From a virus, in the IMG/VR virus record IMGVR_UViG_3300038560_000007, positions 15,615-79,614 of that record: a DNA stretch of 64,000 bases; one strand, 5' to 3'. The notes under the pieces were generated by a model. That model did no database searches. It saw only the letters and a program-made list of their open reading frames with translations, and was not told where the DNA came from. Of the stretch, positions 3,243 to 15,472 are shown one piece after another (position 1 is the stretch's first letter; the number at the start of each line of letters is the position of its first letter). A program made the translations under genes and the position numbers.

Positions 3243-3493
3243 TGGAGGGGACTTTGCAACACAGTGCGAAGAGAGGTCGGCCAGCCCTGTATGACTGGGA
3301 CTACCTGATCGAGAGGTCCCTGAAGCACACGGAGGAGCATGACTTCGTTCAAGGCGAAAACTTCCTATGCACGCCAGACTCTTTCGCTTCCCTTGTCCGA
3401 AGGACCGCACGCGTTCGTCACCTAGACGCTGGCGTGAGCATCGATGGAGATCATGTATACTTCATCTTCCTCCCGGAAAGAAAAAGATCCTAG
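3242..3493 (+). CDS. Small putative DNA-binding protein (RGRP-x-Y-x-WD family, paralog of 55378 and 55613)
   Basis: RGRPALYDWD ... QGENF ... SF ... VYFIF aligns by eye with the two genes at 55.4-55.9 kb. Confidence 0.6.
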   Translation: MEGTLQHSAKRGRPALYDWDYLIERSLKHTEEHDFVQGENFLCTPDSFASLVRRTARVRHLDAGVSIDGDHVYFIFLPERKRS

Positions 3494-3501
3494 CGTAGGG
3501 G

Positions 3502-3535
3502 CCTAGCTTTCCACATGAGTCTCGCTATATAATAG
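3502..3535 (+). promoter_or_regulatory. Class I phage promoter (CCTWG-N19-TATATAATAG)
   Basis: CCTAG-19 nt-TATATAATAG; identical spacing at 5 intergenic sites. Confidence 0.85.
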
Positions 3536-3560
3536 ACTTATAATTGAATTTGATAAAGCT

Positions 3561-4082
3561 CCTGGCTCGGACGTTGGGCGTATGCCTGGCCCCCCGTAGG
3601 CATGCGTTTGTTCTGCGAGGGCGTTCGAGCCAGGTTAAGCAGGGTGGTGGGGAGTAGTGACCCCCGAGACGCCTTACACTGAGACGTCGAAGTTGCATGG
3701 GAGCGGGTTTGATGACCTCGCCATGAGAGCCACCCGTCGACGGGCTCCTGGGCTGAAAGCCCGTGACGTTGGAGAAGGCGACACGGTCAAGTACGACAGG
3801 AGCCCACCAAAGTGAGTGCCTGCGATCCTCGGCGTTCGGGAACGAGCATCCGGATGGGTGGAGGTAAGGGCAGGGCGGTGGGCCGCCAGAGAAACCGCCC
3901 TGGAGGGTTCGAGTGAGGATGATCCTCGCCACCAGGCACTCACCCAAGCGCTCGACCTAGCAAGTCACGTACCCCATGCGTGCGCCGCGCCCCCCGATCG
4001 CGGCTGGCTGACCTAGGTCGAGTGAGGCCCTGGCCGGGAGATATGCGAGCTTCCCACGCTATGCTACCTCTCCTGACCAGGG
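3561..4082 (+). ncRNA. Large structured non-coding RNA or array of six multibranched RNA domains (family unassigned)
   Basis: Six consecutive closing helices (3561-3634, 3642-3735, 3742-3805, 3812-3943, 3949-4024, 4028-4082), each with internal hairpins and many G-U pairs; lies directly after a promoter; no convincing ORF. Confidence 0.8.
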
Positions 4083-4106
4083 TACCTATATCTAGAGAGG
4101 ACGGAA

Positions 4107-4238
4107 ATGAAGATCGGTTGTTGGCCAAGCGTGGCACTGGGAGCTCTTGGAGGGCTCACAGTTCTCATGGGACTCAAGGTCTGGAAGACGATAAGGAGGT
4201 CGAAGGATGCCGACCGTCTTGTGCGCGGAGTGCGGTAA
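4107..4238 (+). CDS. 43-aa single-TM peptide (not in the ORF track)
   Basis: GAGAGG RBS; MKIGCWPSVALGALGGLTVLMGLKVWKTIRRSKDADRLVRGVR. Confidence 0.55.
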   Translation: MKIGCWPSVALGALGGLTVLMGLKVWKTIRRSKDADRLVRGVR

Positions 4239-4977
4239 GGCTGCGCCGTGCCCCGATGGACACTACGCAGTCGTAGACATCGCCGGGACGCAGATCGACT
4301 GGATCAAGAAGCTTCCGGAGACATCGTGGATTCCTGCCCTGAACTTGCTCAACGAACTGATCGGCATTGAGGCTAGCTATACGAACACGAACGAGAACGA
4401 CGTTCAGTTCGGCTACAGACCCTACCCGCTAGGCACGTTCGGCAGCCTACTCATGACTGCTCGCGCGAACGTCCAACAGGGCAACTGGGCAAGGCCGCGC
4501 TTCCTCGAGGTCGGATGTGGCCCTGGTACCAAGCTCGTTCTGGCCAACAAGGTCTTCGGCCTCGAAGTCTCTGGCTTCGACGTTGACGCGCAATACATCA
4601 AGGACGCTGCGGATCTCCTAGTCAGCCAGACACTCATAGACTTCCAGGTCAGGGTCGACGACGCAGAGGACTTCGACGACTATGGTCTGTTCGACATCGT
4701 CTTCCTGAATCGTCCACTGCGTGACTACGACCGCCAGCTCCAGCTGGAACAGCACGTCATGAGTCGAATGGGGAACGGGGCAGTCCTGATCCTCGCCAAC
4801 TCGCTGACGCACCCTCCATACTGGAAGTGCCTACAGCAAGCAGTCGCTTGCTCTGTCTACCAGAAGACCTGTCGCTGTTACGAAGCCGAGAGCTATCTGA
4901 CCTTTCCTGGAGACCAGGCTAACCTAGTGTCATGCAAGCTCTGTGGCCGAGTACTCTGGGCTACAGGACCCAGCTAG
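4207..4977 (+). CDS. Class I SAM-dependent methyltransferase with terminal Cys motifs
   Basis: Motif I FLEVGCGPG, GFDVD, DDAE, FDIVFLNRP; CxxC-type motifs at both ends; GGAGG RBS. Confidence 0.85.
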   Translation: MPTVLCAECGKAAPCPDGHYAVVDIAGTQIDWIKKLPETSWIPALNLLNELIGIEASYTNTNENDVQFGYRPYPLGTFGSLLMTARANVQQGNWARPRFLEVGCGPGTKLVLANKVFGLEVSGFDVDAQYIKDAADLLVSQTLIDFQVRVDDAEDFDDYGLFDIVFLNRPLRDYDRQLQLEQHVMSRMGNGAVLILANSLTHPPYWKCLQQAVACSVYQKTCRCYEAESYLTFPGDQANLVSCKLCGRVLWATGPS

Positions 4978-5002
4978 GTCTTGAAAAAATCCTCATTGGG
5001 GG

Positions 5003-5036
5003 CCTTGATTTTTGCTTGAAGCCCCCTATATAATAG
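5003..5036 (+). promoter_or_regulatory. Class I phage promoter
   Basis: CCTTG-N19-TATATAATAG (reads as TTGATT-N18-TATAAT). Confidence 0.85.
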
Positions 5037-5075
5037 TAGTAGAGGCAAACAATCCAGAGAGGGGCGACGTCTACA

Positions 5076-5561
5076 ATGGCGGGCGTTAAGGAAGCAGAGA
5101 AGAAGGTCGAAGAGAAGGCTGAAAAGGCCACCAAGCACAAGGTGCCCGAAGGTCACATCACTCCGGTCGAGGCTACTCATCGACTCAAGAAGGAGACCAA
5201 CCCGAAGACCGGGAAGCCCTACGCCGAGGACAAGCTGACCAGCCAGCAGGTCTACACACTACTCCGCACGTCGGAGAGCAACGGCATGCCGGTGAAGCAC
5301 TTCACCCCAGACGGCAAGTCTCACAAGACTCGTCAGGTCGATGGCGAGGGCAACCTCATCTCGCGTCCCGGATTCAACTGGGACGAGCTCGCTGCGTGGT
5401 GGGCCGATCGTCCGGCGCGTGGATCCAAGAAGGCCAAGGACGAGGAGAAGAGCGGCGGCGAGGCCTCTGACGAGGCGGACGGCGACGACTCCGAGGACGA
5501 GATCGACGAGGACGAGCTCGAGGACGACGGCGAAGAGGGCTCGCTCATCGAGGCCGAGTAG
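5076..5561 (+). CDS. Hypothetical protein with a basic body and a highly acidic C-terminal tail (possible DNA-binding protein)
   Basis: First gene after a promoter; K-rich N-terminus and D/E-rich tail. Confidence 0.75.
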   Translation: MAGVKEAEKKVEEKAEKATKHKVPEGHITPVEATHRLKKETNPKTGKPYAEDKLTSQQVYTLLRTSESNGMPVKHFTPDGKSHKTRQVDGEGNLISRPGFNWDELAAWWADRPARGSKKAKDEEKSGGEASDEADGDDSEDEIDEDELEDDGEEGSLIEAE

Positions 5562-5571
5562 TTCTCTGAAC

Positions 5572-5678
5572 GCCTGGCTCGGGCGACGTTACGAAGGACG
5601 AGAGCGGCATCCTAGGATACTGCCGGCTATGATAGAACCTCGTACCGATGTGTGGTCAGTGGAGGCTCCGAGCCAGGT
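5572..5678 (+). ncRNA. Structured RNA element sharing its closing helix with domain A of the 3.56 kb array
   Basis: GCCTGGCTCGGG/TCCGAGCCAGGT stem enclosing ACGAG/CTCGT and CGGCA/TGCCG helices; intergenic. Confidence 0.6.
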
Positions 5679-5712
5679 TTTGAGGGAATTACCGGAAAGG
5701 AGGTGAATTAGG

Positions 5713-6081
5713 ATGGTACCAAAGATCTACGAGCAGGCCTGCGTCACCTATGCCGCAATGCTTGAAAGGTCTGAGCCTGCGAAGGAGCCTGGAAGCCCTC
5801 CCGTGTACAGAGGGTACATTACGTACCTGGTTGAGGAGCTCGGCTTCGGCATCTCACACTACACTGTCATCATGCGTCGGCTTGTGGCAATGGGTTGTAT
5901 CAACCAGCTAGTAGCGGGCGGACGCGCTGTGCCCAGCGAGTGGGAGATGCTACACGAACCAACTCCGGCACTGTTCGCAGCGAACAGTGGCAGGAAGCAC
6001 AGCCGAATCGACGACCTGGAGAAGAGAGTCGCTCAGCTCGAGGAAGAGATGGAACGAGACCCGGAGGAGCAGGCTTCCTAG
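5713..6081 (+). CDS. Winged-helix-like DNA-binding protein with a C-terminal coiled coil
   Basis: AGGAGG RBS; LVEELGFGISHYTVIMRRLVAMGCI-wing pattern; IDDLEKRVAQLE. Confidence 0.65.
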   Translation: MVPKIYEQACVTYAAMLERSEPAKEPGSPPVYRGYITYLVEELGFGISHYTVIMRRLVAMGCINQLVAGGRAVPSEWEMLHEPTPALFAANSGRKHSRIDDLEKRVAQLEEEMERDPEEQAS

Positions 6082-6368
6082 TGGCTAGAACAAACGAAGA
6101 GTTGAAGGCATACGTCGGCTTCATGCTGGAATGCCCTCGCGAAGATGTCCTAGGCTTTGCTCTCGTTGTCGTCAAGACAGATAGTAACGTCGCTATCCTG
6201 TCTAATGGCAACAAATACCAAGTTTCAGACCTGTTGGAGAGTGCAAGAGATACCATCTTTAACATAACGGAGGAGGAATACCTCAGTGGCAAGCAAGGAC
6301 CAGAAGGGCCAGAATCCTTTCAATCCGAACTGGAACAGCACGTTCCTGAGACTCAACCAGAACTGTGA
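6081..6368 (+). CDS. Hypothetical protein
   Basis: GTG overlaps the previous TAG; GGAGG upstream. Confidence 0.55.
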   Translation: MARTNEELKAYVGFMLECPREDVLGFALVVVKTDSNVAILSNGNKYQVSDLLESARDTIFNITEEEYLSGKQGPEGPESFQSELEQHVPETQPEL

Positions 6369-6627
6369 GGACTGGAAGGTTCCGAGTGATCACCGAGGCG
6401 TAACCTTCGAGGAGTGGGTGGAAGGACTACCGCTTCAACTCAACCGCGAAGAGATTACGCTTGCTGAGTCAGCCTGGAGGGCTTCGATTACACATCACAC
6501 GGCAACGCTTCGTCGCATCGGCTGGATTGATCAGAAGGGTCGCGTCTGGCTAGAGGTTCCTTCCGCGAAGGACTTCGATGGCGGAAGCCTCACGCCTTTG
6601 CTAGTTGACGTTCGAGGCGATGACTAA
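6286..6627 (+). CDS. Hypothetical protein
   Basis: GGAGGAGG RBS before GTG; TAATG coupling. Confidence 0.55.
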   Translation: MASKDQKGQNPFNPNWNSTFLRLNQNCEDWKVPSDHRGVTFEEWVEGLPLQLNREEITLAESAWRASITHHTATLRRIGWIDQKGRVWLEVPSAKDFDGGSLTPLLVDVRGDD

Positions 6628-6833
6628 TGGCGAGACTACGGCTAGGCCGAAAGCTTAGCCAGACTGAAGGTTTGCAGACGCTTTATCTTCAGAATGGGGA
6701 AGAGCCTTCCGACGATGACCCTTGTGTAGGTGTAGTCATATCACCTGCTCTGGCAAGGTACATCGTGCGAGGGACCAATGATGATGGAGCGTTCCGGAGG
6801 CTGACAGAACTATGGAGGCTGACAGAACTATGA
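6627..6833 (+). CDS. Hypothetical protein
   Basis: Coupled to neighbours on both sides. Confidence 0.55.
   Translation: MARLRLGRKLSQTEGLQTLYLQNGEEPSDDDPCVGVVISPALARYIVRGTNDDGAFRRLTELWRLTEL
6796..6832 (+). repeat. Tandem 18-bp duplication of an RBS-plus-start unit
   Basis: GGAGGCTGACAGAACTAT x2 followed by G, creating ATGs at 6812 and 6830. Confidence 0.9.
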
Positions 6834-8230
6834 AGCCCTATCCGTTTCAGCAAGAGCTCATCGACTTTCTAGGCGACCCTGAGAAGAAGGGCCGTCTTAT
6901 CGGCGATGACATGGGCCTAGGTAAGACCCTCGAAGGCCTCGCCATCGACAAGAAGCTCCGTCAGCGCGTCAAGGGTCGCCGGAAGACTCTGATCATCGCA
7001 CCTCGACAAACACATGAGGAGCCGTGGGCTGAGACCATCCAGGAGTTCTTGGGTGCAAAGGCTTGCGTCATAGACCGAAAGAACCGAGCTCCGTTCCTCA
7101 GGGCGATTACGTCTAACGACGGTGAGTACGAGTACTTCGTTTGTCACTACGAAGCATTGCGTTTGATGCCACAGCTAAAGCAAGTCCCGTTGTTCCATCT
7201 GATCCTGGATGAGACTCACCGGATCAAGAACCGTAAGGCCCAAGTCACTCGCACTGTCAAGGGCTATAGCACGGTCTACAAGACTTCGATGTCAGGTACG
7301 CCTGCAGACGACAAGCCACAAGACCTCTGGTCGACGCTGAACTTCCTGTACCCGGGACGCTACCCTTCGTACAACCGATTCGTTCAAGAGTACTGCCTAA
7401 CCGAGCCACTCCAGATTCGGAGTCGCTTCGGAGGCATGATGACTGTGAACAAGGTTATCGGAGCGAACCCCAATACCGTGCCGAAGCTTCTGGAGGGCAT
7501 GAAGCCCTTCTACATGCGGAGGCTCAAGGAAGAAGTCCTCAGAGATCTCCCGGACAAGTATTATTCCCGGATCCTGGTCGATCTACCCTCGCCTCAGCGA
7601 AAGATCTACGACGATCTTCGCGAAGAGATGCTGGCCTGGATCGGAGAGCATGAGGACCAACCTCTTCAGGTCGCACTTGTCGTAACACAGCTCGTACGAC
7701 TCCAGCAGGCAGCTCTGGCTACACTAGAGTTCGACGAGAACGGTAAGGTTCGTCTGATCGAACCCTCAGCTAAGCTGGACTCTCTAGTCGAGGTTATACA
7801 GGACGAGAGTGTTCATCCCTTTGTCGTCTTCTCCCAGAGCAAGTCAATGATCAACCTAGCAGCCACTAGACTGGCTAAGGAAGGTCTACGCGTCGCTAAG
7901 TTCCATGGCGACGTGCGGGATGCTGATCGACTAGATGCCGTACGAGGCTTCAAGGCAGGTAAATACGACGTCTTCGCATCGACGATCGCTGCCGGCGGTG
8001 AAGGCATCGACCTGACTCGAGCCTGCACGGAGTTCTTCTTCGACCGTTCTTGGAGTCCATCCAAGAACAGGCAGGCGGAAGACCGCTGTCATCGAGTGAC
8101 ACAGAAGAATGCAGTTCAGGTTATCGATCTGGTCGCTAGAGACTCCGTCGACCAGCGCGTGCGTGAAACGAATATTCACAAGTGGACACAGCTCCGCACA
8201 ATTCTAGGAGACAGCAGACGTGGTAGATGA
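6830..8230 (+). CDS. SNF2-family (DEAD/DEAH-like) helicase
   Basis: GDDMGLGKT, LILDETHRIKN, SMSGTP, GGEGIDLT, QAEDRCHR motifs. Confidence 0.95.
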   Translation: MKPYPFQQELIDFLGDPEKKGRLIGDDMGLGKTLEGLAIDKKLRQRVKGRRKTLIIAPRQTHEEPWAETIQEFLGAKACVIDRKNRAPFLRAITSNDGEYEYFVCHYEALRLMPQLKQVPLFHLILDETHRIKNRKAQVTRTVKGYSTVYKTSMSGTPADDKPQDLWSTLNFLYPGRYPSYNRFVQEYCLTEPLQIRSRFGGMMTVNKVIGANPNTVPKLLEGMKPFYMRRLKEEVLRDLPDKYYSRILVDLPSPQRKIYDDLREEMLAWIGEHEDQPLQVALVVTQLVRLQQAALATLEFDENGKVRLIEPSAKLDSLVEVIQDESVHPFVVFSQSKSMINLAATRLAKEGLRVAKFHGDVRDADRLDAVRGFKAGKYDVFASTIAAGGEGIDLTRACTEFFFDRSWSPSKNRQAEDRCHRVTQKNAVQVIDLVARDSVDQRVRETNIHKWTQLRTILGDSRRGR

Positions 8231-14296: not shown

Positions 14297-15472
14297 TTGA
14301 TTGATCCTACCCAAATCCATGAAGTGCACGGAAGCGTGCTCAAGTCGTTTCAGGGCTGCCGCCTTCAGTACAAATGGAACTTCATCGACGGGTACACTCC
14401 GCCGACCGTCGCTGCTCCATTGGAGTTTGGCTCGGCATTCCACCGTGGGATGGAAGTCCTCTATAACCCAGACACCTGGGACCTCCCGCTATTGGAACTC
14501 TACCGTCTGGCTAAGGAAGAGTTCACTAACGTTTGCATGCACCAGTTGGAAGCCTTCCTCAATAGAGCCGCGCTGTATCAGCTAGACCACGAAGCTGAAG
14601 TTGACTACCTCAAGCGCATCGAGCTCGGATGCGGCATGCTCCGCAAGGTCGCTCGGACTATGGATCGTAAGAGCTTCAAGCCCGTTCTAACCGAGAAGGA
14701 GATCTTTGTCCCGATCAAGTATCCTACCACTGATCAACAGTTGCATTGTCGGTGCAACGATTGCTGGGATAAGTCCAGTAAAGCTGACCCTGATCTCATC
14801 CCTACCGAGTGGTCCGGTCTTCCAGTCTACTACGGACTACGTGTCGATGCCGTACTCGTGGACGAAGACGGAGGCTACTGGCTCGTCGACTGGAAAACCG
14901 CCAGTCAGCTCTTGAAGGATCAACTCATCCTCGAGCTCGACGGCCAGATCATCAACTACCTCTGGGCGCTCAAGCTCGCCTCAGGTCTAGACCTCCGAGG
15001 CTTCAAGTACGTCCAGATCCTAAAGGACTTCCCCCACAAGCCGAGGGAGCTAGTAAACGTCCGTCTCGGACGTAAGTTCAGCGTGGCCAAGAACGCTCGA
15101 ACAGATGCTGCCACGTTCTCTACCTATGTCAAGAAGCACGACAGCGATGCTTTTAAGGCTGGACTCTACGCCGAGCATATCGAATACCTTCGCAACTTCG
15201 GCCCCATGTTCATTAACTGGATGACAGTCTACAAGACCGACCAACAGCTCGAAGTCGTCGGTACAGACTTGGCCTATGCAGTTAAGGACTTGCTAGACTC
15301 TCCGGACATCTACGCTACTGGTGGTCGAATGGTTTGCCAGCGTTGCGTCTTCCAGGAACCTTGCCTCGAACGGCAATCAGGAGGTGATTTCCAAGACATC
15401 CTAGACTCGCAGTACGAGAAGCTCCCACCGTACTTCATAATCGAACGAGAGCGCAGGAAGGCGGACGCGTGA
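14297..15472 (+). CDS. Cas4/RecB-like PD-(D/E)xK exonuclease
   Basis: SFQGCR, FGSAFH, E...RVDAVL...LVDWKT, QIINY, C-terminal CxxC-x5-C. Confidence 0.9.
   Translation: MIDPTQIHEVHGSVLKSFQGCRLQYKWNFIDGYTPPTVAAPLEFGSAFHRGMEVLYNPDTWDLPLLELYRLAKEEFTNVCMHQLEAFLNRAALYQLDHEAEVDYLKRIELGCGMLRKVARTMDRKSFKPVLTEKEIFVPIKYPTTDQQLHCRCNDCWDKSSKADPDLIPTEWSGLPVYYGLRVDAVLVDEDGGYWLVDWKTASQLLKDQLILELDGQIINYLWALKLASGLDLRGFKYVQILKDFPHKPRELVNVRLGRKFSVAKNARTDAATFSTYVKKHDSDAFKAGLYAEHIEYLRNFGPMFINWMTVYKTDQQLEVVGTDLAYAVKDLLDSPDIYATGGRMVCQRCVFQEPCLERQSGGDFQDILDSQYEKLPPYFIIERERRKADA

Follow-up and report, generated by a model that had tools for sequence, protein, structure and literature searches.

The hairpin at positions 5573-5677 of the window, hereafter E3, is tentatively explained as a punctuation element of an early phage transcript, at which the message would be processed or its end protected and whose base would be read by a protein (probability of about 45%). 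The window is the whole stretch of DNA analysed (64 000 nucleotides), i.e. bases 15615-79614 of a 79.6-kb phage record from IMG/VR estimated to be 90% complete. DNA-identical sequence was present in peat metagenomes from two studies, and the element was without variants when the second peat study was compared. The + strand early region corresponds to the first 22 kb of the genome. It is characterized by ten near-identical sigma-70-type promoters around CTATATAATAG (Table 1), which have in common a cassette of ~45 nt with CCTTGC or CCTAGC as the -35 box and CTATATAATAG as the -10 box. Several of these promoters have a short GC inverted repeat around the -35 box (e.g. GGGGGC…GCCCCC at window 4998-5026), reminiscent of the PeSL cassettes of T4-type phages.

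Two copies of the stem lie in the window. A common closing stem CCTGGCTCGG…CGAGCCAGG had been reported in an earlier note on this DNA and was recovered at 3561-3634 (E2) and 5573-5677 (E3), the earlier coordinates being right to within one base. The 5′ arm CCTGGCTCGG (3561-3570 in E2, 5573-5582 in E3) faces TCGAGCCAGG at 3625-3634 in E2 and CCGAGCCAGG at 5668-5677 in E3. The first base of the E2 3′ arm is a T, which gives a G·U pair, and TT follows directly after both copies. Searching the genome and its relatives for the stem added three more. The copy E1 lies outside the window, 1.1 kb upstream of it (G000 14413-14514), with the arms CCTGGCTAGAACG and CGTTCTAGTCAGG; its flanks, CTGAAC and TTTTGAGG, are those of E3, and TTTTGAGG is not conserved in E2 or in the two relatives. 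The relatives were obtained through the 161-aa acidic protein encoded upstream of E3, which has six homologues in JGI metagenomes (P0002-P0007, contigs up to 37.6 kb). An alignment of these homologues was used to retrieve the contigs L006 and L007, in which the orthologous acidic-protein genes also have the stem behind them (L006 1007-1119, CCTGGCTCGG…CCGAGCCAGG; L007 2810-2864, CCTGGCTCGG…CCGAGCCGGG). Five copies are thus known, from three genomes of one lineage.

Both closing helices of the window are present in minimum-free-energy folds, and also in the fold of the whole 555-nt leader region. The stability of the helices is high (-27 to -45 kcal/mol). No other hairpin family with a common stem of at least 9 nt occurs in the 79.6-kb genome, and none of 60 dinucleotide-preserving shuffles gave one; the constant handle proposed in the earlier note is therefore real. 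A look-alike at window 6545-6663 (TCTGGCTAG…CTTAGCCAGA, potential 9-bp stem) was rejected: it spans a gene junction within coding sequence and is absent from the minimum-free-energy fold. It resembles a variant of E1 in which the first pair is changed on both sides. The CCWGG sites in the arms are unremarkable, the 303 such sites genome-wide being close to expectation. The 10-mer CCTGGCTCGG is also one base off CCTGGCTCAG, the 3′ end of the universal 16S primer 27F (16S positions 18-27), and the arms of E1, E2 and L006 presumably continue to resemble 16S with a one-base deletion. This resemblance is probably coincidental, given the many conserved rRNA positions that can be matched.

The helix was examined pair by pair over the five copies. 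Uninterrupted pairing extends over 14 bp in E1, over 15 bp in E2 (with a further 13 in its inner hairpin) and over 10-11 bp in E3, L006 and L007, and the helix has no bulge. The seven non-Watson-Crick pairs within these uninterrupted stretches are without exception G·U or U·G when read on the + strand; the opposite strand would have A·C or C·A mismatches in their place. Positions 1-7 are invariant except for two wobble pairs, so that the closing helix of 10-15 bp has an invariant 7-bp base, CCUGGCU paired to AGYCRGG. Double compensatory changes are found at two positions further in: at position 8, E1 has A-U where the other four copies have C-G, and position 10 is A-U in E1, G·U in E2 and G-C in E3, L006 and L007. 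E1 has diverged throughout positions 8-13 and keeps the 7-bp base. The spacing between the arms varies from 35 to 93 nt, which would be tolerable for a helix and would not be for a dimeric DNA site. Wobble pairs confined to the + strand, covariation and variable spacing together indicate that the stem is an RNA helix of the sense transcript and not a DNA site.

Pairing alone does not account for the conservation of the arms. Between E3 and its counterpart in L006, all 20 arm bases are identical, as against 42% identity at four-fold sites of the acidic-protein gene (P about 3e-8). Between L006 and L007, 19 of 20 arm bases are identical, as against 57% at the four-fold sites of the same gene (P about 2e-4). 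Identity of the arms where neutral sites are saturated argues that the stem is under purifying selection on its sequence as well as on its pairing.

The sequence enclosed by the stem behaves differently. The interiors of E2 and E3 have no 6-mer in common, as expected from the earlier description of them as unrelated, and no motif or conserved nucleotide is common to the interiors of E1, E2, E3, L006 and L007. L006 and L007 align at 85-90% identity as far as the last base of the 5′ arm and then once more immediately past the 3′ arm; between the arms the two are unalignable and differ by 58 nt in length (93 vs 35 nt). Compared with shuffles, the interior folds gave z-scores of -1.3 (E1), -2.2 (E2; -2.16), +0.78 (E3), -0.6 (L006) and -0.3 (L007), and structure above chance was found only in E2, as a perfect 13-bp inner hairpin. 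The helices ACGAG/CTCGT and CGGCA/TGCCG pointed out in the E3 interior by the earlier note do occur in the fold, but at chance level, as 159 of 200 shuffles folded at least as well. With no motif, no alignment and no excess structure except in E2, the interior looks like an unconstrained spacer and not like cargo. On these grounds the idea of a modular RNA family with different cargo finds no support, and its dispersal through the early region comes down to three copies within 6.9 kb.

Table 1. Features of the E2 and E3 loci and of the early region. Positions are those of the window unless another sequence is named.
Feature	Position	Strand	Remarks
Ten early promoters	G000 161, 4109, 4804, 11295, 14085; window 3526, 5027, 9010, 14258, 58747	+	
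CTATATAATAG -10 box before E2	3525-3535	+	Inferred transcript start ~20 nt before E2
E2 5′ arm	3561-3575	+	15 nt; first 9 pairs Watson-Crick, position 10 G·U
E2 inner hairpin	3576-3609	+	13 bp; fold, z = -2.16
E2 3′ arm	3620-3634	+	
Chain of closed structured RNA domains after E2	3642-4085	+	7-nt linker; no credible ORF
Promoter of the E3 transcript	5005-5036	+	Strong, sigma-70-type, early; TTGATT-18-TATAAT inside CTATATAATAG box
Upstream gene	5076-5561	+	161-aa protein with acidic tail; stop 11 nt before E3
CTGAAC flank	5566-5571	+	Common to E1 and E3 only; both read CTGAAC-N-CCTGGCT
E3 5′ arm, CCTGGCTCGG	5573-5582	+	10 Watson-Crick pairs with 5668-5677; G·U at position 11
E3 interior	5583-5667	+	85 nt, apparently unconstrained spacer (z-score, no common motif, unrelated orthologous interiors)
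E3 3′ arm, CCGAGCCAGG	5668-5677	+	
TTTTGAGG flank	5678-5685	+	E1 and E3 only; runs into the RBS of gene 5713-6081
Downstream gene	5713-6081	+	122 aa; orthologous to L006 1388-1759 (42% identity)
Hammerhead type II matches	L005 (G000) 3654-3710, 6010-6066, 6324-6383, 7583-7642		Between early genes, shortly 5′ of start codons

The stem also keeps a fixed position. Four copies begin shortly past the end of the gene that comes first after a strong promoter (E1 14 nt, E3 11 nt, L006 4 nt and L007 4 nt from the stop codon), at 0.3-0.55 kb 3′ of the promoter. E2 alone is promoter-adjacent: its transcript, inferred to start ~20 nt earlier, contains no ORF over about 560 nt. Three of the ten promoters of the genome have an E copy. 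Behind E1 and E3 come UUUUGAGG and an RBS. The product of the gene before E3 is rich in Lys at its N-terminus and has an acidic tail with a conserved L-x-EAE at its end; its core is weakly winged-helix/PadR-like (AF2 model with pLDDT 68.6; Foldseek E >= 0.17), and no Pfam family was found for it. Since the acidic gene, the stem and the 122-aa gene are orthologous, the locus is syntenic in the three genomes. The gene after E1 (L005 14536-15273) encodes a winged-helix DNA-binding protein according to Pfam (LexA/MarR/IclR-type HTH matches). The gene after E3 is similar to it by eye, the two being without detectable paralogy.

Three of the five copies border a chain of structured RNA. Behind E2, the ORF-less ~555 nt that follow a strong promoter (window 3541-4095) fold with z = -4.89 into abutting closed domains. 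The first of these is E2 itself and the second is a three-hairpin cloverleaf closed by 7 bp, which was not called by ARAGORN. In L006 and L007, a tRNA-like cloverleaf with a GGTTCGACTCC T-arm lies 4-5 nt past the stem and is followed by two further closed domains with compensatory changes between the contigs. The L006 cloverleaf is tRNA-Ala(agc)-like, and the anticodon loop of the L007 cloverleaf is degenerate. This second chain (L006 1124-1390, L007 2870-3140) is non-homologous to that of E2 and has no Rfam match. In every case the 5′ border of the chain is an E copy. The chain stands behind E2 in G000 and behind the E3-equivalent in L006 and L007, which points to rearrangements next to E copies. 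The hammerhead type II model gave four early intergenic matches (26.9-35.9 bits, E = 3e-4 to 0.08), all below its gathering score. These sub-threshold matches suggest that the cutting of transcripts is a theme of this phage.

Relatives, families and partners of the element were searched for. Rfam gave no match at gathering score in the window and nothing in L006 or L007; at E <= 10, window 3400-5800 gave three weak unrelated matches, among which there was no Y RNA-type family and no ribozyme. A self-cleaving ribozyme was rejected on account of this last result and of the lack of conserved interior nucleotides. ARAGORN called no tRNA, either in the window or within the first 16 kb. No relatives were obtained by single-protein searches of viral contigs with four queries, no DNA match in the phage collection and no match of the acidic-protein alignment to genome contigs. 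The helicase alignment search retrieved only phages that were 19-25% identical, none with an E-like stem. The flank-specific pattern CTGAAC-N-CCTGGCT…CAGGTTTTGAGG had no match in viral contigs. By these searches, the element matches no described family.

The stem pattern alone matched 76 loci in viral contigs, all of them in unrelated coding sequence that is mostly high in GC. None was a relative by tblastn and they were set aside as unrelated chance matches. At least 120 loci in genome contigs were likewise unrelated to the phage. A 96-nt class among the latter proved to be a conserved protein-coding segment, W-L-G…P-S-Q-G. This segment, …(D)PWLG…(32 codons)…PSQG with a fixed length of 96 nt, was seen in L086, L089, L092 and ~30 other genome-contig loci from many bacterial phyla. 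In a Thermoanaerobaculia MAG, the 10-mer is internal to the 50-nt arm of a palindromic repeat of 135-150 bp that has no relation to the phage element. That repeat was seen in at least 26 copies (G001, e.g. L204 1380-1700), with imperfect 50-nt inverted arms and a variable centre of 20-35 nt, and it looks like a REP/MITE-type family. No RNase III, dsRBD, RtcB or TROVE domain is encoded by the phage; for TROVE, there was no match at E <= 0.1 in the 79.6-kb record, and control genomes were positive. Any partner of the stem would accordingly come from the host or belong to a protein family that is not recognised.

In the reading that we favour, a strong host-type promoter is followed by a first gene, and the helix would form 4-14 nt past the stop codon of that gene or, in E2, ~20 nt behind the start of a non-coding transcript. 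It would separate a gene from a U-rich linker and an RBS-led gene in E1 and E3, and the upstream RNA from a chain of tRNA-like or structured domains in E2, L006 and L007. A cut in the transcript, at the helix or next to it, would follow. Within the helix it could be made by a host endonuclease that is specific for double strands, of the RNase III type; alternatively, an RNase E-type enzyme could cleave the UUUU linker, or RNase P could act at the tRNA-like domain that lies 4-5 nt further on. The remaining helix would cap the 3′ end of the upstream mRNA against exonucleases, and the downstream RNA would receive a defined, insulated start. The invariant helix base would be recognised by a protein, and this would account for the conservation of its sequence over and above its pairing. 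Only the closing helix would be functional, the interior acting as a spacer. Two observations of position suggest punctuation: the stem occupies the niche of the hammerhead matches (between genes, before a start codon), and it precedes a probable RNase P substrate. The protein-binding or processing stem supposed by the earlier note fits the strand, the conservation and the presence in both relatives.

Cleavage of this kind has precedents. RNase III sites are recorded in T7 early mRNA, where single-strand cuts leave 3′ hairpins that stabilise the mRNA (PMC3867540), and in the early mRNA of SP82, the latter through the mention of Panganiban & Whiteley 1983 in PMC4838370. An ideal RNase III substrate has 22 bp, about two turns, of mostly regular helix (PMC3867540). 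Only E2, with 15 + 13 bp, reaches this length; E3, L006 and L007 have half of it. Other points also weigh against punctuation. The recognition of RNase III is degenerate, so that 20 invariant bases would not follow from it alone; the sequence of a perfect A-form helix is not easily read by a protein; and end protection alone requires neither a conserved sequence nor a long interior. Moreover, E2 has no upstream mRNA to protect.

The E units could instead be excised as small RNAs, the helix of which would tether or sponge a protein of the host or of the phage (Ro60/Rsr-like, a defence sensor or a nuclease that binds dsRNA), with an interior that is either irrelevant or a loose effector module. 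A helix conserved in sequence around a free interior would suit such RNAs, strong early promoters drive their transcription, and in L006 and L007 RNase P acting at the adjacent tRNA-like domain would free the 3′ end. Y RNAs are moreover 80-130 nt long, carry the Ro60 site in a long stem and are encoded by some phages (PMC4201824). This reading is nevertheless unlikely, and the analogy with the Ro60-binding stem of Y RNAs drawn in the earlier note did not hold: the phage has no TROVE (Ro60) gene, GNCGAAN0-1G is absent from all five elements with their 15-nt flanks, the helix is unbulged and encloses no tRNA-like T/D arms, and there is no Rfam match even at E <= 10. The stop codon that adjoins four of the five copies suggests that the element acts on the mRNA in cis, and no mechanism is evident for a 5′ cut. 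We also hold it doubtful that the hairpin is purely structural (an exonuclease barrier, an insulator or a ribosome-release spacer without a reader), its uniformity being kept by recombination between copies or with co-infecting relatives. All arms would then have to remain mutually complementary, in the manner of the conserved linkers of T4-type PeSL cassettes. The rearrangements next to E copies are in favour of this, as are the very stable helices and the promoters, which are themselves repeated ~45-nt cassettes, some with GC stems at the -35 box as in PeSLs (PMC2839356). However, 10-13 nt are very short for homologous exchange, and concerted evolution within a genome cannot act on the identity seen between genomes with saturated neutral sites. 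The divergence of E1 at positions 8-13 with the 7-bp base kept looks like a site that is read and not like homogenisation.

The remaining readings concern transcription or the DNA itself. It is highly unlikely that the stem is a processive antitermination site like lambda nut or HK022 put, in which the nascent-RNA helix would recruit a factor or act on RNA polymerase and allow read-through of terminators. E2 would then mirror nutL, and E1, E3, L006 and L007 would mirror nutR; the same sequence at several operons is typical of such sites. However, nut and put need conserved loops and a fixed geometry and here the loop is free, only three of the ten promoters have an E copy, no N- or Q-like protein was identified and no downstream terminators were recognised. 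As an attenuator or partial intrinsic terminator, the stem would limit read-through past the first gene. A GC-rich helix followed by UUUU, as in E1 and E3, has this appearance, and PeSL stem-loops function as terminators (PMC2839356). But UUUU follows the stem in these two copies only (UU in E2 and L007, U in L006), the conserved structured RNA after E2, L006 and L007 must be transcribed, the terminator scan made no call at the E3 site, and the conservation of sequence would be left unexplained, which makes attenuation very improbable. There is scarcely more to be said for an inverted repeat acting at the DNA level, be it a recombination site, the terminal repeats of a mobile element that has decayed, or an operator to which the neighbouring winged-helix proteins would bind. 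In its favour, sequence is conserved in the two arms alike, and winged-helix genes adjoin E1 and probably E3. Yet the spacing ranges over 35-93 bp, the seven imperfections are G·U on the sense strand only, and the orthologous position is kept in three genomes despite diverged interiors, unlike that of a MITE. Furthermore, the sole palindromic family with the 10-mer, that of the Thermoanaerobaculia MAG, is unrelated and has it inside a longer arm.

Conservation of a helix to the letter around a free loop points to a reader of the base of the RNA helix. If the stem does bind a specific protein, a new RNA-protein pair would be added to soil phage-host biology, and finding such a partner or a discrete small RNA would raise the importance of the element. 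Should the E units, against our expectation, be abundant early small RNAs with the helix as a specific handle (a Y-RNA-like tether, or a decoy for a dsRNA-binding nuclease or a defence sensor), they would form a previously undescribed phage RNA-protein system beside transcripts punctuated by hammerhead and tRNA-like elements. The phage appears to use three kinds of RNA punctuation, i.e. hammerhead ribozymes, tRNA-like domains and the stem, and would thus offer a compact natural system for studying how phages partition polycistronic RNA. Orthogonal parts for insulation or processing might also be derived from the stem.

Several known systems share traits with the element. In lambda, nutL lies just behind its promoter and nutR behind the first gene; E is similarly a hairpin that follows one early promoter directly and, at another, comes after the first gene. 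The boxB hairpin of lambda has 15 nt and its loop is the recognition element, unlike E, in which the loop is free and the base of the stem conserved. Enterobacterial REPs are, like E, stable extragenic palindromes just past a stop codon. They reportedly protect upstream mRNA from 3′ exonucleases and, at <=~15 nt from the stop, affect translation termination (Newbury et al. 1987; Liang, Rudd & Deutscher 2015). REPs are compact palindromes of 35-40 nt present in hundreds of copies and spread by a RAYT transposase, unlike the three E copies per genome, with their large non-palindromic interior and no transposase. With no common interior in its three copies, E is not a repeat of the REP/MITE type. 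The T4-type PeSLs offer a repeated regulatory sequence, a plastic early region with sigma-70-like promoters and intergenic stem-loops, and gene shuffling, all as seen here (PMC2839356). The PeSL stem-loop is short (GGGG…CCCC), lies in or beside the promoter and is a terminator (PMC2839356). E is separate from the promoter and behind the first gene, and its 10-bp stem, which is conserved even where genomes have diverged, encloses a long free interior; at 0.3-0.55 kb from their promoters, E1, E3, L006 and L007 do not form a cassette of stem-loop and promoter within ~100 bp.

The element also resembles Y RNA/YrlA in its length of 55-113 nt and in a conserved stem formed by the ends with a variable remainder, and some phages encode Y RNAs (PMC4201824). 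These RNAs are recognised by a Ro60/Rsr (TROVE) gene that lies on their own strand at no more than ~4 kb from them and by GNCGAAN0-1G near the 5′ end (PMC4201824). E differs from them in having no nearby Ro60 gene, no such motif, no bulge and no covariance-model match; E3 has no tRNA-like fold inside, and the tRNA-like domain of L006 and L007 comes after the stem and not within it. Closest in kind are the RNase III sites of T7 (R0.3-R1.3) and of the Bacillus phage SP82: there too, several related intergenic hairpins follow strong host-type early promoters, and the upstream message is stabilised by the 3′ hairpin that remains after cleavage (PMC3867540; SP82 via PMC4838370). E2 has the shape of a classical RNase III site, with 15 bp, a 10-nt one-sided loop and 13 bp. 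The E copies and the T7 and SP82 sites have no sequence relation, and in E the conserved part is the base of the helix, the upper part being free. Early transcripts that are cut and stabilised at hairpins are known from T7 and SP82, and few such elements have been defined outside model phages. The element belongs with the hairpins that lie between genes in early phage transcripts, a kind with a familiar function. Its anatomy is unusual, with an invariant base and a free interior of 35-93 nt.
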